Translations under genes and position numbers: made by a program | Source: Cytophagales bacterium | GTDB lineage: Bacteria > Bacteroidota > Bacteroidia > Cytophagales > VRUD01 | DNA length: 64,000 bases | Direction: 5' to 3' | NCBI GenBank assembly: GCA_019456305.1 | Contig: VRUD01000012.1 | Coordinates: 3,531 to 67,530 of the forward strand | In this document: in pieces, positions 3,589 through 59,508 of the stretch | Layout: every line of letters starts with the position of its first letter | How positions within the stretch are numbered: the stretch's first letter is position 1 | The notes under the pieces: generated by a model | Told to the model about the DNA's origin: nothing | The model's input: only the letters and a program-made list of their open reading frames with translations | The model's database searches: none

Positions 3589-4269
3589 GTGAAAGAGCTT
3601 CTGATCATCTTCGTCAAAAATCCTATTAAGGGCAAGGTAAAAACCCGTTTGGCCAAAACGATAGGAGATGATAAGGCTTTGCTAGTTTATCAATCCCTGT
3701 TGAGATATACAAACAGTGTTACAAAAAACATGGGCGTCAGTAAAGCTGTTTATTATTCTGATTTTATCCCTGAAAATGATATATGGACAGATGGAGTTTT
3801 TTTAAAATACTTACAAAAAGGGGAAAACCTGGGTGAAAGAATGAAAAATTCTTTTGAGCTTGCCTTTGAGCAGCATTATCAATCCGTTGTAATAATCGGC
3901 ACAGATTGCCCTACCCTATCCCAAAAGATCATTGAAGATGGTTTTTCTAAACTTAAAATTTTTGATTTTGTCACCGGCCCTGCCACTGATGGCGGTTATT
4001 ATCTTTTAGGGTTGAATGACCGCATACCTGCATGGCGTTCTATCTTACAAAATAAAAAATGGAGTACAAATACCGTTTTTAAAGAAACAATGAATGATAT
4101 TCAGAAATTAAATAAAACAGTCTGTGTTTTACAAAAATTATCAGATATTGATACGGAAAAAGACCTTTACAAATTACGAAGTACGAATGATGAATTCGTA
4201 CTTCATAAGATAAAATCCGAAATTCAAAATCCGAAATCCGAAACCACTAATTACACTAAATTAGTGTAA
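3589..4269 (+). CDS. DUF2064 / TIGR04282-family glycosyltransferase-like protein
   Basis: LLIIFVKNPIKGKVKTRLA..., VIIGTDCPTLS, GPATDGGYYLLGL. GTG start. The last ~20 codons (..KSEIQNPKSETTNYTKLV*) run into the repeat at 4212-4268. Confidence 0.65.
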   Translation: MKELLIIFVKNPIKGKVKTRLAKTIGDDKALLVYQSLLRYTNSVTKNMGVSKAVYYSDFIPENDIWTDGVFLKYLQKGENLGERMKNSFELAFEQHYQSVVIIGTDCPTLSQKIIEDGFSKLKIFDFVTGPATDGGYYLLGLNDRIPAWRSILQNKKWSTNTVFKETMNDIQKLNKTVCVLQKLSDIDTEKDLYKLRSTNDEFVLHKIKSEIQNPKSETTNYTKLV

Positions 4270-6345: not shown

Positions 6346-6394
6346 CGCATAGAGCATAGCGCATAGCGCATAGAGCATAGAGCATAGCACATAG
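6346..6394. repeat. (RGCATAG)x7 heptamer array
   Basis: cgcatag agcatag cgcatag cgcatag agcatag agcatag cacatag, starting 6 nt after the stop of the 4943..6340 CDS. Puts TAG in all three frames. Confidence 0.95.
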
Positions 6395-6601: not shown

Positions 6602-6637
6602 CCATGCTCTATGCTCTATGCGCTATGCGCTATGCGC
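6602..6637. repeat. (CTATGCK)x5 heptamer array, inverted relative to 6346..6394
   Basis: ccatgct ctatgct ctatgcg ctatgcg ctatgcg, preceded by hairpin ccccgcctgtggcgggg (6586-6602). Puts ATG in all three frames. Confidence 0.95.
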
Positions 6638-7268
6638 TTTATTTATTATTACTTCAGCGAAGTGTCATAGCCAATCCTTTAAGATCGCCAAGTTCAAATA
6701 CAATGGCGGGGGCGATTGGTATGCTAACAAAACCTCTCTGCCTAACCTGATCGCATTTTGTAATAAGAACCTAAAGATGAACATTGCTGCTGAGGAAGAT
6801 ATTGTAGAAGCAGGCAGTCAGGAATTATTTTCATATCCATTTGTACATATGACAGGCCATGGTAATGTGGTATTCTCAAAACAAGAAGCATACAACCTGA
6901 GAAAATACCTTATAGGCGGAGGCTTTCTCCATATTGATGATAATTACGGGCTGGATAAATTTATCCGGGTGGAAATGAAAAAGGTTTTCCCTGAACTGGA
7001 TTTTGTGGAGCTGCCTTTTGATCATCCTATCTACCATCAGAAGTATAATTTTCCAAAAGGTTTGCCCAAAATCCATGAGCATGACGGCAAGCCGCCACAA
7101 GGGTTTGGCCTGATCTATGAAGGACGCCTCGTTTGCTTTTATTCATACGAATGTGACCTGGGCAATGGCTGGGAAGACCAGGTTATTTATAATGATCCTG
7201 AAGAGATAAGACGACAAGCACTGAAAATGGGAGCCAATATTCTCTCATTTGCGTTGACCGATTATTAG
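6618..7268 (+). CDS. DUF4159 domain protein
   Basis: FKIAKFKYNGGGDWYANKTSLPNL...YPFVHMTGHGNVVFSKQEA..LRKYL..GGFLHIDDNYG. I prefer the start at ATG 6618 (MRYALCALFIITSAKCHSQ, signal-like). The maximal ORF begins at 6537. Confidence 0.75.
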   Translation: MRYALCALFIITSAKCHSQSFKIAKFKYNGGGDWYANKTSLPNLIAFCNKNLKMNIAAEEDIVEAGSQELFSYPFVHMTGHGNVVFSKQEAYNLRKYLIGGGFLHIDDNYGLDKFIRVEMKKVFPELDFVELPFDHPIYHQKYNFPKGLPKIHEHDGKPPQGFGLIYEGRLVCFYSYECDLGNGWEDQVIYNDPEEIRRQALKMGANILSFALTDY

Positions 7269-8241: not shown

Positions 8242-9684
8242 TCCCAAAATAACTTTACACGCTTCTTTGATCTCTTCTTTTGTAATAATTAAAGGCGGTG
8301 TTATTCTCATAGCGCTGTCACAGTAAAGAAACCAATCAACAAAAACCCCGGTGGTGTCAGAAACCCTACCTGACTGTTCCGTATTTCTCGGGGAGATACA
8401 TTTATCAATGATAGATTTTAATTGATCATAAGATTCAAACTGAAGCGCCATCATCAGTCCTTTACTTCTGATAGCCTTGATTTTGGGATGTGCTAATAAT
8501 TCGATGAATAGTCTTTCTTTTTCCGCTACTACAGCCCCCCCCAACCCCCCCGAAGGAGGGGCTTTGCCAACGCTTTTGCCAGCCCCCCCTAAATCCCTCC
8601 TGCCACTATTTCTTACCGAATCGGTGAATGGGTGAATGGGTGAATCGGTGAATCGCTTCGTTTTCCTGTTCTCCGTTTCTCCGATTCTCCGGTTCTCCGA
8701 TTCAGGGGGGCTTGGAGTTAGAGGGGGGAGGGGGGGGCTGGCAGTTGGGCTGATTAGTTCCAAAGAAGCGAGCCCTGCAGCACAGCAGACGGGATGACCA
8801 CCAAAAGTAGTGATATGTCCTAAAACAGGATTGGTTTTTAAGACAGACATAATTTCCTTTGAAGAGATAAAAGCGCCAAGCGGCATACCCCCTCCGATCG
8901 CTTTGCCGCAGCATAAAATATCCGGCACAACGTCAAAATGCTCAAAAGCAAACAGCAATCCTGTTCTGCCAAAGCCTGTTTGAACCTCGTCAAAAATTAG
9001 AAGTGTGCCCGACTCGCTGCATTTGTTTCTCAGTGTTTTTAAATATTCTTTGTCAGGTATTATTACACCCGCTTCTCCCTGGATGGGCTCTATAATAACC
9101 GCTGCAATTTTATCTGTGATATATTCCAGATCTTCAGTGTCATTGAATTTTATATGTCTTACCTCCGGTAATAATGGCCTGAACGCTCTTTTAAACACTT
9201 CGCTCCCGTTTAATGATAAGGCGCCATGCGTAGAACCGTGATAGGCATTTTGAAGTGAAATAATTCCAGTTCTGCCGGTAAATCTTTTGGCTAATTTTAT
9301 CGCCCCTTCTACCGCTTCACTACCGGAATTAACAAAATAGGTGCATTCTAATTGAGCAGGAAGATTTTCAGCAAGCTTTTTGGCAAGCATTACCTGTGGC
9401 GTTTGCACCAATTCTCCGTAAGCCATCAGGTGAAGATATTTATCAAGCTGCTCCTTGATCGCTTTTATAACTTCTGGATGACGGTGGCCTACATTATTCA
9501 CGCCAATCCCGGATATCAGGTCTATGTACTTTTTCCTACTTGCCCCGCTTGTCCCGGTCCTATCGGGTTTTTTGGGGGCTTTTCCAAACATATATACTCC
9601 TTCTGCGTAGTCAATCTCAAGCATAGAAGGAAAATCAGAAGTTTGGGCTAAATGGTTCAGGAAATCTTGTTTTATTGTGTTCAT
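8221..9684 (-). CDS. class-III (acetylornithine/GABA-type) PLP aminotransferase carrying in-frame repeat insertions
   Basis: ISGIGVNNVGHRHPEV, FVNSGSEAVEGAIKLA, LIFDEVQTGFGRTG, CCGKAIGGGMPLGAF, GGHPVCCAAGLA. ATG at 9684. Repeat-derived segments at 8530-8757 and 9543-9567. Confidence 0.85.
   Translation of the reverse strand: MNTIKQDFLNHLAQTSDFPSMLEIDYAEGVYMFGKAPKKPDRTGTSGASRKKYIDLISGIGVNNVGHRHPEVIKAIKEQLDKYLHLMAYGELVQTPQVMLAKKLAENLPAQLECTYFVNSGSEAVEGAIKLAKRFTGRTGIISLQNAYHGSTHGALSLNGSEVFKRAFRPLLPEVRHIKFNDTEDLEYITDKIAAVIIEPIQGEAGVIIPDKEYLKTLRNKCSESGTLLIFDEVQTGFGRTGLLFAFEHFDVVPDILCCGKAIGGGMPLGAFISSKEIMSVLKTNPVLGHITTFGGHPVCCAAGLASLELISPTASPPLPPLTPSPPESENRRIGETENRKTKRFTDSPIHPFTDSVRNSGRRDLGGAGKSVGKAPPSGGLGGAVVAEKERLFIELLAHPKIKAIRSKGLMMALQFESYDQLKSIIDKCISPRNTEQSGRVSDTTGVFVDWFLYCDSAMRITPPLIITKEEIKEACKVILGAIAHSA
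8583..8744. repeat. 162-bp GC-rich palindromic element, intragenic copy A (copy B at 27238..27399)
   Basis: About 158/162 identical to 27238..27399. Built from C-run/G-run termini and 8-mer arrays (GGTGAATS)x4 and (CTCCGNTT)x3 that can pair. Confidence 0.95.
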
Positions 9685-23647: not shown

Positions 23648-26600
23648 CTAATGTTTTATCAATTTAACATACCCGGAACTCACGCCATTACTCAATTTTA
23701 AAACGTACACCCCTTTCATCATTTTTACTACGTTATCATCAAGTTCAATCATATGATCCCCTGCAAATTGATACTGATCAACCAAAATAGCTATTTTCTT
23801 ACCCGGCAAATCAAAAATATTCAGCACAATATGTCCCGGCTCGTTCAACCGGTATGAAATAGTAATGCTTTCATCAAAAGGATTCGGATAAACCCGTAAC
23901 CCGAAACCCGAAACCCGAAACTCATTTATAGCAGTGGGGTTTTGAAATACCTGCCCGTCAGAGGAAGTAATATTTGACAACAGGCCTGCACCGTTTTCGG
24001 CCTTCACAGAAAAATAATAGGACTGCCCAACGATCAGGGTTAAGCCGGTATCTGTCAAAGTAACTATACCATTATCTGTCCAGCCAACGATGTCGCTGTC
24101 TCCGGGCATAGTACCTATGGCATACCGGTATTTTGCTATACCTGAATTGGTGTCGGTTGAAGGGGCCCAGTTAGCGGTAAGCTCCCCGGCAATGTAGGTG
24201 GTATCAATATCGGCAGCAGCGCCATCGTTAATAGCAGCAATGTCAGCAGGTGTAGTCCAGTCTATGTTTACACTTAATCCGGCAGGGGCAGACCAATTTT
24301 CTGCCGAATCTTTCACAATAGAGACTATTTTACAGGATGGTGTGGCCGGGCCTGCATTTTGAAACCTGATGTCATTGGCAGCTGCAGAGCCAAGGGTGAT
24401 CAATTCGGAATTGGCCCTAACTTTATATACTTTCAGGTCATCATACATCACGTTGGCATTGCCTGTTCTCAATGATATATAACTTCCGGTAGAATATGGT
24501 GAAGGATCAATCCACGAAGATACGAGTTGATCATCACGATACCCCTTTATTTCCCCTGTGGCAGGATTAAAGATCACCTTAAAGTCATACCACACACCGG
24601 GGTCTAAAATACAGGGGTCATTGGTTTGAATGGCCCAGGTATCATTTGTTACTTTATAGATCTGGCATTTATCCTGGTCAACGCGGTAGTACACGAAATA
24701 TGAATTTCCCCTGTTGGGCAGCGAGCCGTCATCAGAGAAGAAATGAATGCCGCTTCTCCGGTTAACACCTGAGCCGTTCATGTTTGCCTGCCAGTGGTAC
24801 AAATATATTTGTGTAGAACCCTGAGCTAATGAAGCATAAATATTGGTATTTCCCTGGCTTTCATCCGTTTGATGAATGGCGCCTGAATTGATCACCCAGA
24901 TACCGGCAGTATCCGTCCAATCCGGGTGAATGGCAATGTCAAAATGGTCATTAAAGAAACCATTATTGTCATTGGCTCTCCATTCAACGCCATTGAGATC
25001 AAGCGCCTGGTAAAATTGCAGATCAAGGCCGCTGCCTCCGGGATTATCTGCATCCGTAAACGTTGCCATGAAATCGGTTGTTTCAAAAAAACCCGGATTA
25101 CTGATTGATGTGGCGGGAGGCAAAAAGTCAACAGAGTCTAAATTGCAGCTCCAAATGGCATCCCAACCCGGGTTTACTGCTGAACCATCTGATGTAAACC
25201 TGAAGGTAATATCACCGCCCGAAGAAACGATGGTACCGGGCGAATTGGTACCGGTGAAAGGACTTCCGGGAATTTGTGGCGAGGCTGTACCTGGGCCGTC
25301 ATGTATATATAAATAATCCCAATTCAATTCAATATCAAAAAAAGTAAAGGACACAGTGATTGAAGCAGCGCCAGCAGGAGAAATGGTAAATAGATGGTCT
25401 TCATTATTGAAATAGGTTCCCAATTCACCGCCTGAATCTCTGAATAAACCCGAGCATAATGTTGTTGTTTGTGATTGGGCAGCAGGCGTGTTAAAGGAGG
25501 AACCACCAAAGCCGGAAGAATCAGCTACACACAATGTAGAAACCTGCCAGTAATAAATGGCATTGGAGGCAAGGCCTGTCAGGGTATAATTATTGGATGA
25601 AACATTTACGTAAGTCCAGGAGGCATCAAGATTTCGTTTGTATTTTAAAAGATACCCCAATGCACCTGCCACAGTGTCCCAGGTCAGGTCTGTGGTAAAA
25701 GCAGCCATATTACTTTCAGTGAGGTTGGTCGGTAGAGGACATGCCAGGGGAATCGTGTCTGATGTCCAGGCAGCTTCCCAGCCGGGATTGTTGGTGTTGC
25801 AGTCCGAACGAAATTCGATCAAAAAAGAGCCGCTTTGTGCAGTGATCGTCCCGGGTGAATTGGTGCCGGTATAAACGCCTGTCAGCGGATCATCTACCGT
25901 GGTTCCGTCATAAATATACAAGTAATCCCAGTCTGTTTCCAGGTCAAAAGAAAGGTAGGTTAGAGTCACCGAAGCAGCTCCGGCCGGGCTGATCAGCCAG
26001 AAGGATCGTTCATCATCAGCATAATTGGAAGCCGGCCCTCCGCTGTCATAAAATGTGTCGGATGAGGCCGTGTAGGTAGTAACAACCATACTATCATTGA
26101 TCAACTGGTAAAAATATTTCCAGTCCCAGTAAATACCCGGGTCGGTGTGCGTTTGATTTGGATAATGCTGGTGTCCCTTGATTTTAATACATCCCCCAAG
26201 CAGGCAGCTTGAGCTGCTGCCGGAACAGGCAGGCCCGGAATACGTTCTTAAAGGATTAATCCCGTAGTCATTGCAGATATCTTTTACAAGGTCTGCCGAA
26301 GCCTGGTACATTACCTGTGTGTACCAACCGGGCTGGCCGGCATATCCTTCATGCTCCAACCCAATGGTATATGGATTTTCTGAACCAACGTGCCAGCCTT
26401 TATCAACTTCGCAAACCATTTGCGTGATCTGTCCGTCTAAAGAACGTAATACGTAGTGAGCAGATACATTAGCAGCCGGATTCTGAAACCAGGAAATGGC
26501 TCCCGCATAAGATCCTTCAATATCGTGAATAACAACAGCAGAAATTAGTGTACCAGCCCTTGAAGAATAGTTGGAGGGGTCGGCCGGAACCCAAGTCACA

Positions 26601-27649
26601 CCTGGATAATCTATGCACGGTTGATTTGGTGATTTGATCTTATATTGAATATTATCATCACCGGTAACCGTATTATTGTTGATCATTACTTCTTTGGAAG
26701 ATAAGACACGGTAATTGTTCTTTCCAAAAACTTTTTGCAGGTTAATGTTATGATCCGGAATATTAAATGCTGAACAAAACTCACTATCATTCAATAAAGT
26801 CAATACTGAATAAATATGCGAATTAATTGCAAAATCATTAACCGTATTGTCATTCCGGGCAGGGCGAAAGCCAGTGGCTTTCGAGCCAGCCTGAGGGATG
26901 GAGCCAATGGGAATGGCTGAGCGAGGAATCTCCTTTGGATTTACCACCGAGTTCTCGGGGCGCGCGATTTTTGAATCCACGTGTAATTCACTCAACTCAA
27001 CAATAATTGTGATATAATCCACTGGATTTGCAGTGTGAATATTTTTGGAGTTTATTAGTGACGAAAATGCCGCTGCATAAGCCAAAATATTCTGACGAGG
27101 GTCGTTGATAATATCCTCTACAGCTATTCCTGAAAGGTTTGAAACAAGCTCCAGGTTATTTCTAAAATATCCTTTACCATCCAGCACAAGCCCCATTACA
27201 CCGTAGTAAGCAGGCAGACCTGTGCAGCTTAGAGCAGTCCCCCCTAAATCCCTCCTGCCACTATTCCTTACCGAATCGGTGAATGGGTGAATCGGTGAAT
27301 CGGTGAATCGCTTCGTTTTCCTGTTCTCCGTTTCTCCGATTCTCCGGTTCTCCGATTCAGGGGGGCTTGGAGTTAGAGGGGGGAGGGAGGGGCTGGCAGG
27401 GATAATATGCCTGATTCGGGTATTGGTATAGGCAATGGCTTCTAATAATCCCCCGGGTATGTCGGGATAATTAAGATATGCTTCCTGAAAATAATTTTTG
27501 TATTGTGTATCGGGTGCAACTGAAGGAGCAGCCCCCATTGAGCGGATTGCTTGTGCAAAACACTCTCCGCTCCAACCAAAGCCATGTGTGTAGCAGGCAA
27601 ACAACTGGTTTATGAACAATAATAAAAGTAGTAAGATTTTTTGTACCAT
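23648..27649 (-). CDS. large secreted multidomain protein: unknown N-terminal domain, PGRP/Amidase_2 N-acetylmuramoyl-L-alanine amidase, 2 CUB-like, FN3, LamG-like, FN3, T9SS CTD
   Basis: Amidase_2: VVIHDIEGSY..AISWFQNP.ANVSAHYV......Q.V....KGWHVG..N.YTIGLEHEG. CUB-like: DSGGP.SNY.....FWLISPAGAASVTLTY.SFDLE..WDYLYIYDG (twice). CTD: VYPNPFDESITISYRL...GVYVLKL. ATG at 27649. Confidence 0.85.
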   Translation of the reverse strand: MVQKILLLLLLFINQLFACYTHGFGWSGECFAQAIRSMGAAPSVAPDTQYKNYFQEAYLNYPDIPGGLLEAIAYTNTRIRHIIPASPSLPPLTPSPPESENRRIGETENRKTKRFTDSPIHPFTDSVRNSGRRDLGGTALSCTGLPAYYGVMGLVLDGKGYFRNNLELVSNLSGIAVEDIINDPRQNILAYAAAFSSLINSKNIHTANPVDYITIIVELSELHVDSKIARPENSVVNPKEIPRSAIPIGSIPQAGSKATGFRPARNDNTVNDFAINSHIYSVLTLLNDSEFCSAFNIPDHNINLQKVFGKNNYRVLSSKEVMINNNTVTGDDNIQYKIKSPNQPCIDYPGVTWVPADPSNYSSRAGTLISAVVIHDIEGSYAGAISWFQNPAANVSAHYVLRSLDGQITQMVCEVDKGWHVGSENPYTIGLEHEGYAGQPGWYTQVMYQASADLVKDICNDYGINPLRTYSGPACSGSSSSCLLGGCIKIKGHQHYPNQTHTDPGIYWDWKYFYQLINDSMVVTTYTASSDTFYDSGGPASNYADDERSFWLISPAGAASVTLTYLSFDLETDWDYLYIYDGTTVDDPLTGVYTGTNSPGTITAQSGSFLIEFRSDCNTNNPGWEAAWTSDTIPLACPLPTNLTESNMAAFTTDLTWDTVAGALGYLLKYKRNLDASWTYVNVSSNNYTLTGLASNAIYYWQVSTLCVADSSGFGGSSFNTPAAQSQTTTLCSGLFRDSGGELGTYFNNEDHLFTISPAGAASITVSFTFFDIELNWDYLYIHDGPGTASPQIPGSPFTGTNSPGTIVSSGGDITFRFTSDGSAVNPGWDAIWSCNLDSVDFLPPATSISNPGFFETTDFMATFTDADNPGGSGLDLQFYQALDLNGVEWRANDNNGFFNDHFDIAIHPDWTDTAGIWVINSGAIHQTDESQGNTNIYASLAQGSTQIYLYHWQANMNGSGVNRRSGIHFFSDDGSLPNRGNSYFVYYRVDQDKCQIYKVTNDTWAIQTNDPCILDPGVWYDFKVIFNPATGEIKGYRDDQLVSSWIDPSPYSTGSYISLRTGNANVMYDDLKVYKVRANSELITLGSAAANDIRFQNAGPATPSCKIVSIVKDSAENWSAPAGLSVNIDWTTPADIAAINDGAAADIDTTYIAGELTANWAPSTDTNSGIAKYRYAIGTMPGDSDIVGWTDNGIVTLTDTGLTLIVGQSYYFSVKAENGAGLLSNITSSDGQVFQNPTAINEFRVSGFGLRVYPNPFDESITISYRLNEPGHIVLNIFDLPGKKIAILVDQYQFAGDHMIELDDNVVKMMKGVYVLKLSNGVSSGYVKLIKH
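27238..27399. repeat. 162-bp GC-rich palindromic element, intragenic copy B
   Basis: See 8583..8744. Same orientation and same reading frame within a different gene. Confidence 0.95.
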
Positions 27650-27665
27650 AGGATAATTTTTGTTT

Positions 27666-27799
27666 AAATGACTATCCGCCTTTATAAACAATATTAGTCC
27701 CGTAGGGACGACCTGTTTGTAGAAAAAATGTCAATACAGCAATAAGCTCCGTAGGAGCGACCTGTTAAAACTTTTGTTTATCTTTGCGGATAGTCATTT
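27666..27799. repeat. 25-bp imperfect inverted repeats enclosing two 21-bp direct repeats
   Basis: aaatgactatccgcctttataaaca ... tgtttatctttgcggatagtcattt. Inside are gtcccgtagggacgacctgtt (27707) and gctccgtaggagcgacctgtt (27746). Confidence 0.85.
27779..27786 (+). promoter_or_regulatory. candidate -7 promoter box for gldH
   Basis: TATCTTTG, 70 nt upstream of ATG 27856, embedded in the right inverted-repeat arm. Confidence 0.4.
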
Positions 27800-37500: not shown

Positions 37501-40500
37501 GTTTTTCCTGAACCAACAGCTTCTATTGCCGGAACCAATGTTACCTGTAATGGAGTTTGTAACGGTGCAGCAGACCTTACAGTTACAGGAGGAACAGGGC
37601 CATATACCTGGCTGTGGAGCCCTGGTGGAGAAATTACCGAAGATCTGATAGGATTATGTCCCGGAACTTATGATGTCACCGTTACTGATGTGAATGGCTG
37701 CCAGGACAGCGCTGTAATTGTGATTACAGAACCGCCTTTATTATCCTTGTTAATTTCAAAAACCGACCTTATCTGCAATGCCGTATGTAACGGAACGGCT
37801 GACCTAACCGTTACAGGAGGTACTACACCTTATACATATTTGTGGTCGCATGGTCCAACAACCCAGGATGTAACCGGGCTTTGTGCCGGTACCTACCAGG
37901 TTGTTGTTACCGATTCGAATGGCTGCCAGGATTCTATTTCTGTAGTAATTACGGAGCCCACAGCATTATCACTATCCGTTTCCGGAACCAACCTTATTTG
38001 TAATGGCATGTGTGATGGTGCAGCAGATCTCACTGTTATAGGCGGTACTACCCCTTATACTTATGCGTGGTCGCATGGCCCTGCAACCCAAGATGTAACG
38101 AGTCTTTGTGCAGGTACTTACGAGGTGATTGTAACTGATTCCAATAGCTGTCAGGATTCCATTGATGTTATTATAACTGAACCTCCCCTTCTCACAGTTG
38201 CTGCTACAAGCACCGATCTGCTTTGTAATGGAGTATGTGATGGCACTGCTTCTGCTGCCGTTTCGGGTGGAACAAGTCCCTACACCTACCAATGGGATGA
38301 TCCTGCAGGTCAAACTACCGCAATTGCTGATAGCCTGTGTGCAGGAACATACCAGGTAGTGGTTACCGATACCAATGGCTGCCAGGATTCTGCAACTGTT
38401 ATTATCAACCAACCTCCTGTTTTAAGTACACTCATTATTGGCGACAGTCTAAATTGTAATGGTGTGTGCGATGGTGCGGCAGATCTGACCGTTGTCGGTG
38501 GAACGCCACCCTATACCTATTTATGGTCAAACCTTGAAACTACCCAGGATATATCCGGTTTATGTGCAGGTCTGCATACTGTTGATGTTTTTGATGTGAA
38601 TGGGTGCAATATGTTTGATGCTATAGTCATCGGTGAACCTCCTTTGCTAACGGCAAGCATTGTTGATTCAAATGTCAGTTGTAATGGAGTTTGTGATGGC
38701 GCTGCAGATGTGACCGTTTCAGGCGGCATACCCTCGTATTCCCACTCCTGGTCAAACCTTCAAACCACCGAAGATATAACGGCTTTATGTGCCGGTACTT
38801 ATGCTGATACCATAAGGGATGCCAATGGATGTACGGTGATCGTAAGTACAGTGATCAGCGAACCTACAGCACTTGCAACCTTAATAGCAGGTACGGATAT
38901 TACTTGTAATGGTGTCTGTGACGGTGCTGCCGACTTAACCGTTACCGGTGGTACTACACCCTATACCTTTTCGTGGTCAAATGGACCTACAACTGAAGAT
39001 ATTTCGGTGTTGTGTGCCGACACATTTAATCTTGCCGTCACAGATTCCAACGGATGTACCATTTCAGATTTGGTGATCATAAATGAGCCTCCGGTTCTTT
39101 TAACAACCATTTCCGGAACAAATGTCACTTGTAATGGAGCTTGTAACGGATCGGCAGACCTTACTGTTACCGGAGGCACACCCGGCTATTCTTATTTGTG
39201 GAGCCCCGGTGGAGAAACTTCGCAAGACCTGATGGGAGGCTTGTGTCTCGGTACCTATGATGTAACCGTTACCGATTTGAATGGCTGCCAGGATAGCGCC
39301 ACAGTGATCATTACCGAACCTTTGGTTCTTTCAACTGCCGTTGCCGGAACTAATGTTAGTTGTAATGGATTTTGTAATGGATCGGCAGACCTGACCGTTA
39401 CAGGCGGCACACTGCCTTATTTGTTCTTATGGTCAAACCTTCAAACCACAGAAGATATTTCCGGCTTGTGTGCGGATACGTTTAGCGTTACGGTTACCGA
39501 TTCCAATCTATGTACAGGTTCAGAAACTGTTATTATCACGGAACCCCCTCTGCTGACGGCTAATGTAGTTGGTACCAATATTAGCTGCAACAGCGTCTGT
39601 GACGGATCAGCAGACCTTACCGTTTCAGGGGGTACGCTGCCTTATTCCTATCTATGGTCCAATACTGATACTACAGAAGATATATCCGGTTTATGTCCGG
39701 GAACTTATAGCGTAACGGTCACGGATTCTAATGGATGTACAGCTTCAGACAGTGCAATTGTTATTGAGCCAACCCCTATTGCGCTTACCGTTTCAGGCAC
39801 GGATGTAACCTGCAATGGCGCCTGTGACGGACAAGCAAGCGCCAGCGTCTCTGGCGGAACTACCCCTTATACTTACCAATGGAATGATCCATTTTTACAA
39901 ACCACACCAACTGCTGATAGCTTGTGCGCAGGTACTTACCAGGCGCTCATAACCGATGCAAACGGCTGCCAGGATTCTGCAACCGCTGCCATCATTGAGC
40001 CTCCGGTATTAACTGCTTCTACCGCAGGAAATGATGCAAGCTGTAATGGCGTATGTGACGGTGATGCTACTGTAACTCCTTCAGGTGGTACATCACCCTA
40101 TACCTATCAATGGGATGATCCCTCATTCCAGATAAACGACACGGCAACCGGTTTATGTGCGGATACAGTCAACGTAACAGTGACAGATTCCAACGGATGT
40201 ACTTTTGATACAAGCTATACGGTAAATGAACCAGCTGCCATGACGCTAACCCCCGGTAGCGTAGATGCCACCTGCGGGATAGCAAATGGAGAGGCATCAG
40301 TGTTCGTTTCAGGCGGTACGAGCCCTTATACCTATTTGTGGTCACCGGGTAGTCAAACTACCGATACGATTACAGGACTATCTGCAGGCGCCTATACGGT
40401 TGTGGTTACAGACGCAAATCTTTGCAGTGATTCAATAACCATATCCGTAAACGATGCCGGAGCTCCCACTGCCAGTATAGTAGATAGTATAAATGTTAGT

Positions 40501-43500
40501 TGTAATGGAGGCAATGATGGCAGCGCTACAGCGACAGGTTCTGGTGGTGTGAGACCCTTCACCTGGTCTTGGTCACCTCCTGCTGTAAGTACTGATTCAT
40601 TTGCTACAGGTTTACAAGCCGGAACTTACACAATAACCATCACTGATGATTTAGTATGCGTAGCCACAGCAACAGTAACCATATCAGAACCACTTGTCCT
40701 GATAGCTTCCATTACTTCAAATGTGCCGGTGGCTTGTAATGGTGATAGTACAGGCAGCGCTACAGTTTCTGTTTCCGGTGGTACACCGGGTTATACCTAT
40801 TCCTGGTCGCCTTACGGTGGAACGGGATCCATTGCCGTAAACTTGATTGCAGGAACTTATACGGTTACCGTTACCGATACAAACGGATGTGATACAACCG
40901 CCTCTGTTACCATCAGCGAACCTCCCCCTCTTACAACAGCTATTACAGATACAAGTGTAAGCTGTAACGGTACCTGTGACGGTGCAGCCGATCTGACCGT
41001 TACCGGAGGAACTTTTCCTTATATATTTTCATGGTCCAATACAGCTACTACTGAAGATATAGCCGGTTTATGCGCTGATACTTTTTATATTTTGGTTACC
41101 GATCTTAATTTATGTACTATATCAGACAGCGTGATCATCACTGAACCTGATTCACTTATTGCCGGCATAGCCGGTACGAATGTGAGTTGTAAAGACTCTT
41201 GTAATGGTGCAGCAGATCTAACGGTTTCAGGAGGCACACTTCCCTATTCCTGGTTATGGTCAACTTCAGATATAATTGAAGACCTGGCCGGCTTATGTGC
41301 AGCTACTTATAGTGTTACTGTTACGGATTCCAACGGATGCACCGTTTCGGAAAGCATCATTATCAGTGAACCTGGCGTACTTGCCACCGGCATTACAGAC
41401 ACGAATGTGAGTTGTTTCGGAGCTTGTGACGGGTCAGCAGATCTGACAGTGGCAGGCGGCACCTCGCCTTATACATACCTCTGGTCAAACGGATTTACAA
41501 CCCAGGATATTTCAGCATTGTGCCCTGATACTTTTATCGTAACCGTTACCGATACCAATTTATGTACAATATCAGATACTGCGATCATTACACAACCTAA
41601 CGTACTTACCGCAGCCATAGCCGGAACAAATGTAAGTTGTAACTTAGCTTGTGACGGTACAGCAATCCTGACTGTAACGGGTGGCACACTGCCAACTACT
41701 TTTTTATGGTCAAACGGAGCAGGAACGAAGGATGTTTTTAGCTTATGTGCCGATACTTACAACGTTACGGTTACCGATGCCAATGGTTGTACTGCTGCGG
41801 ATACGGTGATCATCTCTGAACCTTTAGCGCTTACTGCATCCATAGCAGGAACAAATGTAAGCTGTAACAGCGCCTGTGATGGTGTGGCTGACCTGACCGT
41901 TACAGGTGGTACAGCGCCTTATGATTACCTGTGGTCAAACCTTGCTACCATAGAAGACATATCCGGCTTATGTGCTGATACCTACAACGTTACCGTTACC
42001 GATACGAATGGATGTACAGCTTCAGATACTGTGATCATTACTGAACCATTGGCGCTAACCGCAGCCATAGCCGGAACAAATGTAAGTTGTAACGGAGATT
42101 GTAATGGTGCAGCAGACCTAACCGTTGCAGGCGGTATTTTACCCTATTCTTATTCATGGACAAGTGGAGATAGTATTGAAGATCTAATAAACTTATGTGC
42201 AAACGTTTATGATGTTACCGTTACCGATAGCAACGGATGCACGGTTATCACCGGCATTGTAATTAGTGAACCTGCTGCGCTTACTTCCAACATTGCAGGA
42301 ACAGATCTTAGTTGTAATGGCGCCTGTGACGGAGCAGCGGATCTAAGCGTAATAGGCGGCGTCATTCCATACACTTATTCCTGGTCAAGTGGAGATTCTA
42401 CAGAAGACCTGACCAATATTTGCGCTGACACTTTTATTGTTACTGTTACAGATTCCATTGGATGTACATTATCTGATACCATCATCATTACCGAACCTGC
42501 AATACTCATAGCAACCGATTCAGCTACGAATGCCAGTTGTAACGGAGGTTCTGACGGGGCAATTGATCTTACTGTTACCGGTGGTACGCTTACCTATACC
42601 TATGTATGGTGCCACGGGCCCACGAGCGAAGATGTAACCAACCTGATTGCCGGCAATTATTGTGTTACTGTGACAGATGGTAATGGGTGTACAGCTACAG
42701 ATAGTGTAACCATCAGCGAACCCGATTCGTTAGTATTGACAACCTCAACGATTGACGCAAATTGCGGTCAGAATGACGGACAAGCTTCTGTGATCGTTAC
42801 AGGCGGTGTTGTTCCATATTCTTACTCATGGAATACCTTTCCTGTGCAAGCAAATGATACTGCTTTTAACTTGCTATCAGGAATTTATACAGTTACGGTT
42901 ACTGATTCCAATATTTGTACACAAACAGCCACTGTAACAATTAGTGATTTAGGTGGCGGTACGCCAACAATTACCTTGAATAAGAATGAAACCTGTTTTA
43001 ATTTTCCTTGTGATGGGTCAGCCACTGTTACAATGACAGGGGGTACGCCTGGTTTTACTTATTTATGGGACAATTCAGATCCTGATTCTACTGCAACAAC
43101 GTTATGTGCAGACACACATACAGTAACGGTGACTGATGCAGTGGGCTGTGTTTCTATTGCACAGGTGGTCATTACTAAACCAGATGCAATAAATATTAAC
43201 ATTTCTTCCTCTGGCGCTCTTTGTAATGGCGATAGTTCCGGTGTGGCAACAGCCACAGTTACAGGAGGCACGCCAGGATATACATATTCATGGACGTCTT
43301 ACGGAGGGAATGATTCAATTGCCGACAGCTTGATTACCGGGGTTTATACGCTTGTTGTTTTGGATGCTGCCGGATGTTTTGCTGCGGGCGCTACAGTCAT
43401 TGGTGAACCGCCTCCTTTAACTGCAACGGTTACAGTCACGAATGCTTCCTGTAATGGCTACTGTGATGGTTTAGCCACGGTAACACCCTTAGGAGGCACA

Positions 43501-48716: not shown

Positions 48717-48759
48717 TTTGGCTCTATTCTAAATATTGGTTGATAGTAATTATAAAAAC

Positions 48760-48922
48760 AGTTGGCAGTTGGCATTTTCAAGTTGGTTCCGAGTACTCGG
48801 GAGCAATTGGCAGTTGGCAAAAAACTCCCTCGTCAAAGGCGAGGAAAGATTTGCCAACTGCCAACTGCATTTTGCCAACTTATTGAATTTACTGAGCCGA
48901 AAACCGATCCCGAGTACTCGGG
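48760..48922. repeat. composite repeat: (CAGTTGG)n arrays in inverted orientation plus two exact CCGAGTACTCGG palindromes
   Basis: cagttggcagttggca (48760), caattggcagttggca (48804), tgccaactgccaactg (48852); CCGAGTACTCGG at 48789-48800 and 48910-48921. Confidence 0.9.
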
Positions 48923-50324: not shown

Positions 50325-51080
50325 TTAATAGTAATAATACTCCTCCGGCACTTTCTTGTAAATTGGTATCAGCCAGCCAAATTTTATCCCCCATAGCGTA
50401 TCAAATCTTTTCGTTTCGTCCTTTGCCATGGTATCAAAATTAAAATCCCGCCTGCTTTTGGTCCATGCCTGGGTAAATTCAATATTGATGAAAAAGTTAA
50501 TCCGCTTTTTTTTATCCAGGTAGAGGTAGCCAAAACTTTCCGTTATCGCTGATCCATTGGTCAGTCTGTCATAGCCTTTAATATAATCTCCGGCTATTTG
50601 TGGTACTGTCCGGGTAATATCCTGTATCTTTATTTTATGTTGCAACAAGCCATATCCTATCAATACAAAGCATCCTGAGTTGGCATTAGCCTTTAATATT
50701 TTATAATTCCATAATTTACCAACTTTTATAAAAGGTAATTTCATTCCTCTTTCAGAGATCCTTACTTCGGCAAACAACCCATCGCTCCCAATGATCTCCC
50801 CACTTTCTGTTTTTATACCGTCTAAAATATTATCCTCCTTTACATTGTCACCCCATAAAAAATTGCCATCAATGCCAATTATCCAGTTGCTTTTCGTTTT
50901 GAAAAAGAACCCTCCTCCAATCTCTGCATTATTGCCAAATCTGTCCGCCATATCACCTCCGGGTAATTCATAGCCTGTATTAACAAAAAAAACAGGTATA
51001 TTCGCAGCAGTGTCCTTTATTTGCGCAACCAGGGTAAAGGGGGAAAGCGCATAGAGCATAGAGCATAGCGCATAGCGCAT
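50325..51080 (-). CDS. hypothetical exported/outer-membrane-like protein; start uncertain
   Basis: I prefer ATG 51080 (MRYALCSMLYALSPFTLVAQ, signal-like, encoded by CTATGCG repeat units). The maximal ORF extends to 51245 entirely through repeat DNA. Confidence 0.55.
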   Translation of the reverse strand: MRYALCSMLYALSPFTLVAQIKDTAANIPVFFVNTGYELPGGDMADRFGNNAEIGGGFFFKTKSNWIIGIDGNFLWGDNVKEDNILDGIKTESGEIIGSDGLFAEVRISERGMKLPFIKVGKLWNYKILKANANSGCFVLIGYGLLQHKIKIQDITRTVPQIAGDYIKGYDRLTNGSAITESFGYLYLDKKKRINFFINIEFTQAWTKSRRDFNFDTMAKDETKRFDTLWGIKFGWLIPIYKKVPEEYYYY

Positions 51081-51228
51081 GGTGTATAGCATATGGCGCA
51101 TGGTGTATAGCATATGGCGCATGGCGGGCATATGCCCGACCGTATGGTCGCATGACGTATGGCGAATAACGCATAGAGCAAGGACCATAGCATTGAACGC
51201 CATGCACTTTGCTCTATGCGCTATGCTC
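51047..51228. repeat. GCATAG-family array plus a 21-bp tandem duplication and palindromes
   Basis: gcgcatagagcatagagcatagcgcatagcgcat; gcgcatggtgtatagcatatg x2 (51075-51116); ggcatatgcc; ...gctctatgcgctatgctc. Confidence 0.9.
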
Positions 51229-52978: not shown

Positions 52979-53262
52979 GGTAATTCAATGGCAAAGGACA
53001 GTAGACAATAGACAAAAGACAAATAGACAATAAACAAGACAATTGCAATCAAGTTATAATAGAATATTATGTTTAAATTTAAAGAATTAACCGTGTAAAT
53101 ATATTTCTGAAAAAACTAAAAATGATTGGTTTGAAAAAGAACACGAGATTGGTAAAATGTTAAATCATATGATAAATTATCCTGAAAAATATACACGTAA
53201 AAAAAACAATTAATCTATTGTCTTATTGTCCATTGTCTATTGTCTACTACCATTGAATTACT
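52979..53262. mobile_element. inverted-repeat-bounded 284-bp element containing a gene remnant (possible decayed four-helix-bundle/23S-IVS-protein-type cassette)
   Basis: Arms: ggtaattcaatgg + (ACAATAG)n ... (CTATTGT)n + ccattgaattac. The right arm is the reverse complement of 3421-3457. Confidence 0.5.
53091..53213 (+). pseudogene. start-less ORF fragment resembling the C-terminus of a four-helix-bundle (23S rRNA IVS) protein
   Basis: ..YISEKTKNDWFEKEHEIGKMLNHMINYPEKYTRKKNN*. The ..IS...f..l......EIgKMLn.lI.. pattern is from memory of that family. Preceded by an in-frame stop, with no start codon. Confidence 0.35.
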
Positions 53263-55725: not shown

Positions 55726-57015
55726 GTGTACAAAAAATTAATCAATAAAGAATCTTACCTCGCAGTAATAGGCCTTGGCTACGTGGGCTTGCCCATTGCG
55801 CTGGAATTTGCCAAAAAGGTAAAAGTGATCGGCTTTGATATCAACGCTAAAAAAGTGGGCATGATGAAAGATCATGTTGACCCAAGCGGTGAACTTGAAC
55901 CAAAAGCGTTTGAAAATTGCGATATAATTTTTACTCACAACACTGAAGACCTCAAAAAAGCCGCCTTTTACATAGTTGCCGTACCAACACCGATTGATGT
56001 TTATACCATACCTGATCTTAATCCTTTGCTTTCAGCCACCCGTACAGTTGGTAAGGTATTAAAAAAGGGAAACTATGTTGTATATGAATCCACGGTTTAT
56101 CCCGGATGTACCGAAGAGGAGTGCATACCAATTCTTGAACAGGGATCAGGGTTGAAATTTAAAAAGGATTTTAAGGTCGGCTATTCACCTGAAAGGATCA
56201 ACCCGGGTGATAAGGAGCACACATTACCGAATATAATAAAAGTTGTTTCAGGATGTGATAAGGAATCGCTGGAAAATATTGCTAAGATATATGAAATAGT
56301 TGTAAGCGCTGGTATTCATCGTACCTCTTCTATCAAAGTAGCCGAAGCTGCCAAGGTTATTGAGAATACGCAAAGAGATCTCAATATCGCTCTTATGAAC
56401 GAATTGTCAAGGATCTTTGACAGACTCAATATTAATACTTACGAGGTATTGGAGGCAGCCGGAACGAAATGGAATTTTTTAAAATTTGTCCCGGGTTTGG
56501 TGGGGGGGCATTGTATTGGCGTTGATCCTTATTATCTTACATACAAAGCAAAGGAATTAGGGCATAATCCTAAAGTAATTTTAAGCGGTAGGCAGATAAA
56601 TGACGGGATGGGGGCTTTCATTGCTAAAAAAACTGTACAATTAATGATAGAATACGGCAAAGATATTTATAGATCCAAAGTATTGATCATGGGGGTTACT
56701 TTTAAAGAAAATGTGAGCGATATCAGAAATTCAAAAGTCGCTGACATTGTAAATGAACTAATATCTTTTAGCGTTGAAATTGACATTGTTGATCCTCTTG
56801 CATCTTCAGATGAACTAAAGGAGGTATATGGTTTGACATTAGCTAAGAAAATTGGAAAAAATTATGAAGCCATCATCATTGCTGTTAATCATAAAGAATA
56901 TGCTGACCTGAATGAATCCTATTTTCAGTCTATTACCAATAATAATGCTGTGATTGTTGATGTTAAAGGTATTTATAGAAATAAAATTAAGAATTTGACT
57001 TACTGGAGCCTTTAG
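55726..57015 (+). CDS. nucleotide-sugar 6-dehydrogenase (TviB/WbpO/WbpA-like UDP-N-acetyl-hexosamine dehydrogenase)
   Basis: AVIGLGYVGLPIALEFAKK..V.GFDIN..KV; VYESTVYPG.TEE.C.P.LE; GGHCIGVDPYYL. GTG start 1 nt after the preceding stop. Confidence 0.85.
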   Translation: MYKKLINKESYLAVIGLGYVGLPIALEFAKKVKVIGFDINAKKVGMMKDHVDPSGELEPKAFENCDIIFTHNTEDLKKAAFYIVAVPTPIDVYTIPDLNPLLSATRTVGKVLKKGNYVVYESTVYPGCTEEECIPILEQGSGLKFKKDFKVGYSPERINPGDKEHTLPNIIKVVSGCDKESLENIAKIYEIVVSAGIHRTSSIKVAEAAKVIENTQRDLNIALMNELSRIFDRLNINTYEVLEAAGTKWNFLKFVPGLVGGHCIGVDPYYLTYKAKELGHNPKVILSGRQINDGMGAFIAKKTVQLMIEYGKDIYRSKVLIMGVTFKENVSDIRNSKVADIVNELISFSVEIDIVDPLASSDELKEVYGLTLAKKIGKNYEAIIIAVNHKEYADLNESYFQSITNNNAVIVDVKGIYRNKIKNLTYWSL

Positions 57016-57020
57016 AAGAA

Positions 57021-57100
57021 GTTGGCAGTTGGCAGTAGGCAGTTGGCAGCAGGCAGTTGGCATAGGGTAGAAGATGGTAATACGGTAATACGGTAATATG
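57021..57100. repeat. tandem heptamer array (GTTGGCA-type x6) followed by (GGTAATAC)x3
   Basis: gttggca gttggca gtaggca gttggca gcaggca gttggca; ggtaatacggtaatacggtaatatgg. Confidence 0.9.
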
Positions 57101-57158
57101 GCATTTTGAAATATTAATATTTTGATATATAAACCTTTTTTTATCCAAATTCGATTTT

Positions 57159-58199
57159 TTGTCAAATAAAAAAAAAATACTCGTAACAGGAGGAGCGGGC
57201 TTTATAGGTTCTCATACAGTAGTGGAATTATTTAATGCCGGTTATCAACCCATTATTATAGACAATTTTGTTAATTCCAGTCCTTATGTTCTGGAAGCGC
57301 TGGAAAAGATACTTGGCGAGCAGGTAAAGTGTCACAAAATTGATTGTTGTGATGATGGTGCATTGGCTAAAGTTTTTTCTTCTGAAGAAAATTTTTTCGG
57401 GGTTATTCATTTTGCTGCCTATAAAGCTGTAGGAGAATCTGTAGAAGAGCCGTTAAAATATTACAAAAATAATATTGGCTCAACCGTGGCTTTACTGCAG
57501 GCAATGCTAAAGTACAATATTAATAACCTGGTTTATTCTTCATCCTGCACGGTTTATGGCCAACCGGAAAAAAACCCTGTCAATGAGGAGTCACCTGTTA
57601 TCCCGGCAGAGTCACCTTATGGAAAGACCAAACAGATATGTGAAGAAATTATACGAGACGCGATTAATGCTGTAAATCAGATTAGCAATCCAACCTTCAA
57701 AGCAATTTCATTAAGGTATTTTAACCCTATCGGAGCACATCAATCGGCTCTTTTGGGTGAGCTGCCCCTTGATGTTCCAAATAATCTTGTGCCTTACATC
57801 ACCCAAACCGCTGCAGGGACCAGAAAAGAATTAACAGTGTTTGGGAATGATTATGACACCCCGGACGGTAGTTGTATCAGGGATTATATCCATGTGGTTG
57901 ACCTGGCAATTGCTCATGTAAAAGCAATAGAATTTCATAATAATACAGGGTACGAAGTTTTTAATATCGGTACAGGAAATGGCAATAGTGTGCTGGAAGT
58001 TGTTGAAACCTTTGAAAAAGTTACAGGCTTAAATCTAAAGTATAAGATAGGAAAAAGGAGGCAAGGTGATATTACTAAAATTTATGCTGAAGTTAATAAA
58101 GCCAAAAAAGTTTTGGGCTGGGAAACTAAATTAACGCTTGAAGATGCTTTGAGAGATGCGTGGAATTGGCAGTTACAATTAAAGAATATAAAAATTTAA
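57159..58199 (+). CDS. galE: UDP-glucose 4-epimerase
   Basis: KILVTGGAGFIGSH.V.EL...G....I.DN..NS; SSSCTVYG.P...P..E; PYG.TK...E; RYFNP.GAH.S. Apparent TTG start; no in-frame ATG upstream of the Rossmann motif. Confidence 0.85.
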   Translation: MSNKKKILVTGGAGFIGSHTVVELFNAGYQPIIIDNFVNSSPYVLEALEKILGEQVKCHKIDCCDDGALAKVFSSEENFFGVIHFAAYKAVGESVEEPLKYYKNNIGSTVALLQAMLKYNINNLVYSSSCTVYGQPEKNPVNEESPVIPAESPYGKTKQICEEIIRDAINAVNQISNPTFKAISLRYFNPIGAHQSALLGELPLDVPNNLVPYITQTAAGTRKELTVFGNDYDTPDGSCIRDYIHVVDLAIAHVKAIEFHNNTGYEVFNIGTGNGNSVLEVVETFEKVTGLNLKYKIGKRRQGDITKIYAEVNKAKKVLGWETKLTLEDALRDAWNWQLQLKNIKI

Positions 58200-58202
58200 A
58201 CT

Positions 58203-59300
58203 TTGGAAAAAAATATTCTAATTACCGGAGGTGCAGGTTTCATCGGCTCGCACGTAGTAAAACTGTTTGTCAATAAATATCCTCACTACAAGATATTTAA
58301 CCTGGACAAGCTTACATACGCTGGTAATCTTGCCAACCTTAAAGATATTGAAGAAGTACCCAATTACACATTCATTAAAGGCGATATAGCTGAACCTTCT
58401 TTTATTGATGGCCTGTTTGGTAAATATAAGTTTAATTCAATTATTCATTTAGCGGCCGAGTCCCATGTTGACAGATCTATCGTCAGCCCGATGGATTTTA
58501 TTCAAACAAACATCATCGGGACAGTGAATCTGTTAAATGCAGCAAGGCAAATATGGGAGAAATACTCCACTATTAGCCAAAACCTTGAATCAAAAACCCG
58601 GAACCCGAAACCCGAAACCCGAAACTTGTTCTATCATATTTCCACAGATGAAGTCTACGGATCATTAGATGATAGCGGATTTTTCATTGAATCTACTCCT
58701 TACGATCCCCGTTCACCCTACTCTGCTTCAAAAGCCAGCTCTGACCATTTTGTAAGGGCTTATCATAATACCTATAAATTGCCGTTCGTGATCTCCAATT
58801 GCTCTAATAATTACGGACCTAACCAGTTTCCTGAAAAGCTAATTCCACTATGCATCAATAACATTAAGAATAATAAACCGCTTCCAATTTATGGTAGGGG
58901 TGAAAATATACGTGACTGGCTATATGTTGAAGACCATGCAAGGGCGATTGATTTGATTTTCCATAAAGGCAATGTTGGAGATACCTATAATGTAGGTGGT
59001 GTAAATGAGTGGAAAAATATTGACCTGATCAGGCTTCTTTGCAGGATAATGGATAAAAAGACCGGACGGCCTGCAGGAAGTTGTGGCAGTCTGATCACTT
59101 TTGTAAAAGACCGTCAGGGGCATGACCTTCGCTACGCTATTGATGCTTCTAAAATCATGAATGAATTGGGGTGGAAACCATCTCTGAAATTTGAAGCAGG
59201 CCTTGAAAAAACGGTTGACTGGTATTTAGCAAATCAGCAGTGGCTGGAGAGTGTTACTTCAGGCGCTTATCAGAAGTATTACCAGGAGCAATATGGGTAG
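58203..59300 (+). CDS. rfbB: dTDP-glucose 4,6-dehydratase, with an in-frame heptamer-repeat insertion
   Basis: ILITGGAGFIGSH.V......YP.Y.I.NLDKLTYAGNL.NL; HLAAESHVDRSI; HISTDEVYGSL; PYSASKASSDH.VRAY; SNCSNNYGP.QFPEKLIP. Apparent TTG start. Repeat at 58594-58625. Confidence 0.9.
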   Translation: MEKNILITGGAGFIGSHVVKLFVNKYPHYKIFNLDKLTYAGNLANLKDIEEVPNYTFIKGDIAEPSFIDGLFGKYKFNSIIHLAAESHVDRSIVSPMDFIQTNIIGTVNLLNAARQIWEKYSTISQNLESKTRNPKPETRNLFYHISTDEVYGSLDDSGFFIESTPYDPRSPYSASKASSDHFVRAYHNTYKLPFVISNCSNNYGPNQFPEKLIPLCINNIKNNKPLPIYGRGENIRDWLYVEDHARAIDLIFHKGNVGDTYNVGGVNEWKNIDLIRLLCRIMDKKTGRPAGSCGSLITFVKDRQGHDLRYAIDASKIMNELGWKPSLKFEAGLEKTVDWYLANQQWLESVTSGAYQKYYQEQYG

Positions 59301-59508
59301 TAAGTAGACAGTAGACAGTAGACAGTAGACAATTGACAAAAAAAAGAGACAGCAGGGAATGGCTTATAGTTTTAACTGTGACTATTTACTAATTTACAAT
59401 ATCTAATTTTCCACATGAGCCTGAAGAAATTCAGGTTTATAAATTCAATAATTCAACTTTAAATTCGTATATTCGCATATAAGATTATATAAATATAAAA
59501 ACATTTTG

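Follow-up and report, generated by a model that had tools for sequence, protein, structure and literature searches.

The rfbB gene, its product and the loop

The 64,000-nucleotide window analyzed here, the whole stretch G000:C27:3531-67530, belongs to the draft genome of a Cytophagales bacterium (4.25 Mb, 159 contigs, 37.4% G+C). It carries an rfbB (rmlB) gene for the dTDP-glucose 4,6-dehydratase RfbB, and within this gene lies a short tandem array of the heptamer AAACCCG, detected with Tandem Repeats Finder (TRF). The locus comprises the following features, some of them placed with an AlphaFold2 (AF2) model.

58203..59300, + strand: rfbB/rmlB, dTDP-glucose 4,6-dehydratase, 365 residues, intact open reading frame (ORF)
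58557..58628, + strand: segment coding for the loop E119-L142 (24 residues) between helix 96-128 and strand 143-148, from the ortholog alignment and the AF2 model
58594..58625, + strand: (AAACCCG)4.6 array, read K131-T-R-N-P-K-P-E-T-R-N141 (codons 58593-58625), from TRF and direct reading
58629..58661, + strand: FYHISTDEVYG block with the catalytic T-D-E, directly 3' of the loop, conserved in the alignment

An earlier note on this DNA had claimed that the array is read in frame in rfbB, and this is borne out by the intact ORF, by the TIGR01181 equivalog profile, which scores the window RfbB above its cutoff (463.1 against 365.1 bits), and by the preserved catalytic residues. The NAD site G9-G15 (GGAGFIG; GGAGFIGS is kept), the catalytic T148-D149-E150, and Y173 and K177 of the YxxxK motif are invariant in the RfbB alignment and match the solved RmlB structures. 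The best solved relative is PDB 8du1, with an E value of 1.1e-158 over residues 3-364. None of the remaining matches listed for the RfbB protein in the genome is better than E 9e-17, and the cluster that holds the window RfbB in the protein collection has a single member. The closest named homologs are from Cytophagales, for example Porifericola, Xanthovirga and Catalinimonas.

The loop between W118 and F143 has 24 residues in the window RfbB and 8 in 77 of 110 Bacteroidota orthologs, and thus 16 residues are extra here, 11 of them from array codons. The earlier note's statement that extra residues precede FYHISTDEVYG, where the loop is normally short, therefore stands. Twelve of these loop residues are absent from the Escherichia coli and Salmonella structures, and the loop of 8du1 has 19 residues. 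Since its length varies from 8 residues in most orthologs to 19 in 8du1, the loop is a general indel hot spot at which insertions and deletions are tolerated. The AF2 model, built on a 15-sequence alignment, served for the order of secondary structure alone; it places coil at 129-142, with a predicted local distance difference test score (pLDDT) below 50 at 125-139 and a low-confidence mean pLDDT of 65.5. Rossmann-type folds have their helix-to-strand loops on the side that faces away from the cofactor site. By this general topology the array loop would be placed away from the cofactor face. The 5' part of the loop (EKYSTISQNLES) was considered as a dispersed repeat of its own and rejected, as blastn-short gave chance-level short matches alone.

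The heptamer array

The ORF reads ..STISQNLESKTRNPKPETRNLFYHISTDEVYG.. across the array region. The array at 58594-58625 (aaacccggaacccgaaacccgaaacccgaaac) and a second one at 23890-23921 (aaacccgtaacccgaaacccgaaacccgaaac) are identical at 31 of 32 bases, and the single difference that the earlier note had reported falls at position 8. TRF describes both 32-mers as period 7 with 4.6 copies and 92% matches; the rfbB array holds 3.6 perfect units. A search with the 22-nt array core, allowing up to three mismatches, found these two sites in the window and none in 100 dinucleotide shuffles. There is no inverted copy of the AAACCCG unit within the window, and the rfbB array is a direct tandem repeat rather than a palindrome. 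A third copy on contig C158 ends with the identical ...CCCGAAACTTG. The near-identity of the two 32-mers is the best hint that sequence may have been copied or converted between arrays.

Because 7 and 3 are coprime, three or more units give one cyclic 7-residue peptide in every frame. For a heptamer array to survive in a gene, all seven of its cyclic triplets must be free of stops, and AAACCCG qualifies on both strands: direct reading finds no stop triplet, with KPETRNP as the sense and FRVSGFG as the antisense peptide.

Period-7 arrays genome-wide and the (CGAAAYY)n superfamily

Period 7 dominates the tandem repeats of the source genome. Counted at three or more copies and a score of at least 36, there are 813 period-7 TRF rows, against none in a block-shuffled control genome; merging reduces these to 796 arrays, which fall into 141 unit families. 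Although 87% of the genome lies in long ORFs, these hold only 276 arrays, and the remaining 12.8% holds 520, so that array density is 0.075/kb inside and 0.96/kb outside, a 12.8-fold depletion within ORFs. A total of 113 arrays are located deep within ORFs that have 200 codons or more. Arrays of 4-5 copies are the commonest class just above the TRF threshold, and the copy number of 4.6 shared by the two 32-mers is uninformative as evidence by itself. The largest family, ACTGCCG, has 100 arrays, three of them deep in ORFs, although its unit is stop-free too.

Long arrays mix the units AAACTCG, AAATTCG, AAATCCG and AAACCCG, which together form one (CGAAAYY)n superfamily. It numbers 42 arrays where about 3 would be expected under uniform unit usage. 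Of these, 32 lie in ORFs, compared with 244 of 754 other arrays (Fisher p = 3e-8), and those deep in ORFs run sense in 18 cases and antisense in 4, toward the hydrophilic RNxKxEx reading (p = 0.004). A preference of CGAAAYY for ORFs was rejected: its density is still about 2-fold higher outside ORFs than inside, a weaker depletion than the roughly 14-fold of other families (from counts). The excess in ORFs reflects weaker purging and no attraction to genes. The earlier suggestion that selection filters the insertions agrees with the lower density of arrays in ORFs, the stop-free unit and the 18:4 orientation bias of CGAAAYY.

In-frame (CGAAAYY)n arrays of 4 to 21 copies occur in the following genes.

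AlaRS: C115:8255-8356
ValRS: C123:17030-17146
PyrD: C119:10634-10730
KsgA: C103:8712-8777
TsaB: C82:41536-41683
Asd: C158:13213-13238

In AlaRS, ValRS, PyrD, KsgA and Asd the array falls within the Pfam domain envelope, which indicates that these host ORFs are real; the TsaB array comes after the stretch matched by Pfam. A metagenome scan for a sister AlaRS allele gave nothing closer than 58% identity, with relatives covering about 480 codons of the 549-residue query.

The superfamily is restricted in its distribution. The source genome has 105 CGAAAYY pattern matches; among 300 other genomes of the order, two have 36 and 1, and 298 have none. The genomes compared include no second member of the family or genus of the source genome. 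G235 is the sole other genome of the order rich in CGAAAYY, and its rfbB loop is without a periodic array. The flanks of the 42 CGAAAYY arrays show neither conserved ends nor target duplications. A 16-nt palindrome (TCCCGAGTACTCGGGA) is associated with CGAAAYY arrays, and the rfbB array is without it.

Several further observations concern these repeats. Copies of the palindrome GATCCCGAGTACTCGGGAC lie within CGAAAYY arrays or directly beside them at C15:8593, C63:38062, C64:12879, C82:41536 and C101:8122. In one PyrD allele (L202) GATCCCGAGTACTCGGGAC stands in place of internal units and is read RSRVLGT. The PyrD relatives L201 and L202 have small in-frame inserts (IRMCQV../ISMCQVPPYGWSPEGG..) in other loops, which the query lacks. 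In the window, inverted pairs of one heptamer unit flank 70-210 nt of intergenic DNA at four places (6346-6394 / 6604-6638; 51046-51126 / 51198-51226; 52997-53037 / 53214-53246; 48759-48774 / 48852-48868). Repeats with a period of 225 nt at 37810-38243 and 41538-42239 (1.9 and 3.1 copies, 70-73% matches) are probably repeated protein domains of large surface proteins.

Turnover of the array at the rfbB loop

The nearest rfbB homologs, on the JGI contig P0002/L033 and the ENA contig P0003/L115, form a starred clade of the tree together with the query. L033 is syntenic with window positions 55727-59317 at 91-95% nucleotide identity. Its RfbB is 91% identical in amino acids over the aligned residues, and identity at codon positions 1, 2 and 3 is 95.5, 95.0 and 83.2%, the pattern of purifying selection on rfbB with the array present. 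The loop itself cannot be aligned: L033 has NGDDS followed by (AAATCGT)4.6, where the query has EKYSTISQNLES followed by (AAACCCG)4.6, and its loop peptide, SSNRKSKIVNRK, is unrelated to that of the query. In P0003, 80% identical in amino acids, the loop array is (CATCAAA)4.6. In each of the three the array spans 32 nt and runs directly up to the K/N-L codons that precede FYH. Different units at one junction in sister lineages mean that the array turned over in place, and unusually fast for such close relatives. The claim that the array was inserted thus holds in so far as these residues are extra relative to most orthologs; a single discrete event copied from 23890 goes beyond the data, and the different units of the sister lineages indicate turnover in place.

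Two intergenic arrays that flank the gene behaved differently, with the unit kept and the copy number changed between the query and L033.

57020..57062, + strand: intergenic (AGTTGGC)6 array, 5' of a galE-like gene, from TRF; 3 copies in the sister contig ortholog
59303..59331, + strand: (AGTAGAC)4 array starting 3 nt past the rfbB stop, from TRF; 2 copies in the sister contig ortholog

Two features of L033 stand apart from the loop array. Within 5000-6122 another rfbB loop carries a 33-nt imperfect palindrome insert (VGAKRRSRFVG) that the query is without. The contig end, 6202-6362, repeats the contig's rfbB loop region in inverted orientation and so mimics a second array; this was considered as local spread and rejected as an assembly artefact.

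Period-7 arrays occupy the same loop in other homologs.

L034: CAAACCT x5
L117: AAACTTS x4.9
L118: CCAAACY x4
L116: AATCCGA x2.4
L031: degenerate, ending AACCCGAAACC
L111 (Chitinophaga): GCTTCCA x4.4
L042: GGAGTAG with an inverted copy

The protein search ranks candidates by shared 5-residue words and so favours homologs that share loop words; the frequency of array-bearing homologs in it was rejected as inflated for this reason. In unbiased sets, a clear period-7 loop array is present in 2 of about 110 orthologs (L042 and L111). RfbB orthologs of other phyla with an identical extra loop sequence, which would have spoken against the earlier note, did not come to light. Ortholog loop peptides similar to that of the query, LKRETRNL and LKPQTSNL, proved to be period-7 arrays in their DNA, one of them demonstrably recent. 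In the tree the query clade is nested among proteins with 8-residue loops (backbone support is moderate).

The birth of such an array can be followed in a cluster of Vicingaceae/Flavobacteriales metagenome-assembled genomes with at least 90% identity. Eleven of the 15 listed members have a 7-residue loop and no array (TDLSSKL or IDLSSKL in nine, TDFSSKL in two), and three have QTSNLKPQTSNL. The DNA of the two loop states is 87% identical overall, and ATTGATTTATCTTCAAAACTT has given way to CAAACTT(CAAACCT)4, which lengthens the loop by a net 15 nt. The Vicingaceae-type loop array may plausibly have been seeded by the native TTCAAAACTT. The array-bearing contig L034 also gained arrays in the rfbB 5' untranslated region and just past the stop (3037-3062 and 4142-4167), both absent from the 87% identical L119.

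The earlier note had expected length differences in multiples of 21 nt for a gene that stays functional. Two loci were compared pairwise. At the rfbB loop the query and its sister P0002 differ by 7 residues, or 21 nt, a multiple of 21. The loop of P0003 departs from that of the query by 6 nt and from that of P0002 by 15 nt, neither of which fits. For the PyrD array, the relative from the P0003 sample stands 42 nt (6 units) from the query, again a multiple of 21. A third PyrD allele, the one with the 16-nt palindrome, differs by 51 nt from the query and by 9 nt from the P0003-sample relative, and neither figure is a multiple.

The expectation is thus upheld by rfbB against P0002 (21 nt) and by PyrD (42 nt) and contradicted by the other comparisons (6, 9, 15 and 51 nt). 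In the 42-nt PyrD comparison the terminal units are common to both alleles and the internal units differ. The 21-nt rule therefore holds where units alone changed and fails where other small indels or elements are involved.

Interpretation and alternatives

The rfbB tract is best read as a tolerated, selection-filtered coding heptanucleotide microsatellite of a lineage-specific, dispersed (CGAAAYY)n family, an interpretation that we consider probable. The array is in frame in an intact gene under purifying selection, arrays are depleted in ORFs, their orientation is biased, and units turn over between close relatives. We infer slippage-type growth and homogenisation of the rfbB array, and spread of the unit family between loci by some copying or conversion process. 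The genome would yield period-7 arrays at a very high rate, with birth and turnover frequent in the lineage. At rfbB the array would add 11 hydrophilic residues (KTRNPKPETRN) just before the catalytic strand, and it would persist because its net length keeps the frame, the unit is stop-free in all frames and the loop tolerates residues. The extra residues are most likely neutral for the enzyme; indirect hints of activity with the long loop come from the purifying selection relative to the L033 allele and from the solved homolog with a 19-residue loop. The sole mechanistic consequence would be that a slip of one or two units shifts the frame of rfbB upstream of the catalytic T-D-E and YxxxK.

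Several points weigh against this interpretation. Every unit was exchanged at a constant length of 32 nt between genomes with 91-95% identity, which is hard to obtain by simple slippage, and the spread of the family together with whole-array replacement at constant length goes beyond such slippage. The copy at 23890 matches at 31 of 32 bases with its imperfect unit at the identical position, which growth in place does not explain. Array length is known from assemblies alone, and out-of-frame variants may exist. Given the low-confidence AF2 model, loop exposure is argued from fold topology and the long loop of 8du1.

Some of these points suggest a repeat that is actively written or mobile, with dedicated copying or a templated process, similar to the very small dispersed repeats of cyanobacteria or to ectopic conversion between arrays, repeatedly hitting the same permissive sites and the rfbB copy related to that at 23890. 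We hold this to be a rather unlikely alternative. The 58594 and 23890 32-mers have equal start phase, end phase and copy number and share a non-consensus base at one position; the C158 copy ends in the same bases (CCCGAAACTTG); families such as ACTGCCG with 100 arrays and CGAAAYY with 42 are too large for random seeding; the whole loop was replaced with the array still at 32 nt; and the 16-nt palindrome is associated with arrays. In all lineages, nevertheless, the phase of the loop array is fixed relative to the native K/N-L codons, and in the observed birth TTCAAAACTT, already present in the native loop, has the look of a seed, while the 42 CGAAAYY arrays lack conserved ends and target duplications. 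Moreover, arrays of 4-5 copies are in any case the most frequent ones to pass the detection threshold, and no candidate writing enzyme was found, with no search aimed at one. The more general proposal, that templated synthesis or conversion from one array to another, rather than passive slippage, installs and overwrites the arrays at recurrent permissive sites, we consider equally unlikely. If it were true, RfbB, PyrD, AlaRS and ValRS would acquire lineage-specific loops that change faster than synonymous sites, and CGAAAYY would be a repeat adapted to coding DNA, without stops on either strand and with a hydrophilic reading in all frames.

A contingency locus, in which slippage turns a dTDP-rhamnose-dependent surface polysaccharide on and off as in phase-variable lipopolysaccharide genes, is quite improbable. 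As at the contingency loci of Haemophilus and Neisseria, a non-triplet simple sequence repeat (SSR) lies in a surface-polysaccharide gene (PMC2651432; PMC3315296), and a slip of one unit would truncate the protein before its catalytic residues. Heptanucleotide SSRs are candidate mediators of phase variation in Haemophilus influenzae, where the examples have 13-38 units, against 3.6 perfect units here (PMC2651432). The rfbB tract, unlike those loci, is very short and interrupted, and similar arrays lie in AlaRS, ValRS, PyrD, KsgA and Asd, genes that a cell cannot turn off; neither a long uninterrupted tract nor a restriction to dispensable surface-related genes was found. The array also sits mid-gene, away from the 5' end. 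Every array-bearing rfbB allele encountered is in frame, a point weakened by their ascertainment through protein searches. A phase switch at the rfbB array is therefore unlikely, because the tract is short, essential genes carry similar arrays and an off allele was not encountered.

An old and selected KPETRN-type extension of an RfbB clade, with the DNA periodicity incidental, is largely refuted, and we give it very little weight. Several homologs do have loops ending ..(K/Q)xT(R/S)NL before FYH, and the 8du1 loop is comparably long. Those homolog loops are, however, period-7 arrays of different units in DNA, and the closest relative (91% amino acid identity) has the unrelated peptide SSNRKSKIVNRK. 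In the cluster of at least 90% identity the arrayless 7-residue loop prevails (11 of 15 listed, with 3 array loops), and the query clade is nested among proteins with 8-residue loops. An assembly artefact in this metagenome-derived contig is scarcely credible, even in a 159-contig draft with an artefactual inverted duplicate at the end of the related contig L033, since the array at 32 nt is shorter than a read, lies in an open frame 6.5 kb from the high-coordinate contig end and 62.1 kb from the other, and has counterparts at the same junction in independent assemblies of other samples.

Comparison with known repeat systems

Heptanucleotide repeats were reportedly described in cyanobacteria, as short tandemly repeated repetitive (STRR) sequences, by Mazel and colleagues in 1990. 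The arrays studied here are head-to-tail, with at least three copies and above chance; they are mainly intergenic, and copy number shifts at orthologous arrays. In many prokaryotes no class of long SSR is commoner than the heptanucleotide one, whose arrays lie mostly between genes (PMC4679880, which summarises Mrazek et al. 2007; PMC4692102), units that are multiples of three being those expected in genes (PMC4679880; PMC4692102). The present genome resembles those with such repeats (cyanobacterial STRR, the G-rich heptamers of Xanthomonas and Nostoc, and TAACTGA of Beggiatoaceae, cyanobacteria and a few Bacteroidetes) in its hundreds of 7-nt arrays, their mainly intergenic position and scarcity in coding DNA, the prevalence of arrays of about four units and an unexplained mechanism of spread (PMC4679880; PMC4692102). 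It differs in the number of unit families, 141 where those genomes have one or a few, and in that most CGAAAYY arrays fall within ORFs, essential genes among them. Between relatives, the rfbB array itself kept its length but not its unit.

Rickettsia palindromic elements (RPE) were reportedly found inside protein-coding genes by Ogata and colleagues in 2000. They are reviewed in PMC10969869 as in-frame selfish repeats in Rickettsia genes. The repeat here shares with RPE its dispersal, its in-frame position in conserved housekeeping genes and its absence from most orthologs, and presumably a confinement to permissive surface segments. RPE are palindromic, hairpin-forming, about 100-150 bp long and inserted once each, whereas the rfbB array is a 32-nt direct tandem whose length can drift and whose unit was replaced between close relatives.

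The small dispersed repeats (SDR) of Nostoc punctiforme, reportedly described by Elhai and colleagues in 2008, are likewise very small, without a known transposase and tied to tandem heptamers; here the 16-nt palindrome is nested in some CGAAAYY arrays. The rfbB array differs in being without the palindrome. SDR are mentioned in PMC3116915.

What the present analysis adds is the comparative evidence from one loop, the CGAAAYY statistics and the lineage restriction of CGAAAYY. Non-triplet repeats are normally purged from coding DNA or act as switches; against this rule, they are in frame here in essential enzymes. The same RfbB loop carries different 7-nt arrays in several Bacteroidota lineages and so offers a natural series for birth, turnover and frame-constrained length change, and it marks a site of the RmlB fold that is evidently tolerant of extra residues. 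For annotation, these arrays make proteins longer and can give rise to false frameshifts in draft assemblies.

The second site and arrays in secreted proteins

The second copy of the array lies in a protein sorted by the type IX secretion system (T9SS).

23890..23921, + strand: second (AAACCCG)4.6 array, minus-strand reading EFRVSGFGLRVY, at about residues 1257-1268 of a 1347-residue protein
23648..27691, - strand: 1347-residue T9SS-sorted amidase/CUB protein, host of the second array, from Pfam

Pfam assigns Amidase_2, CUB, fn3 and Por_Secre_tail (1267-1344) to this protein. As Por_Secre_tail begins at residue 1267, the array peptide EFRVSGFGLRVY stops where the T9SS sorting domain starts. 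Two paralogous T9SS proteins have (AAACTCG)4.6 arrays 79 residues before the stop, the same distance as for the 23890 array, and a fourth T9SS-like ORF has an (AAACCTG) array 87 residues before its stop. Four T9SS-type proteins (C78:29257-29289; C78:34275-34307; window 23890-23921; C100:12282-12313) thus have an array read antisense (FRVSxFxFRx) at the point where the C-terminal sorting domain begins, 79-87 residues ahead of the stop.

A module of octamers occurs twice in the window, at 8618-8703 and 27273-27358, and consists of (GAATCGGT)4.8, a 13-nt spacer and (TTCTCCGA)4.4. The copy at 27273-27358 sits in the N-terminal part of the 1347-residue ORF, where it is read ..PPESENRRIGETENRK...

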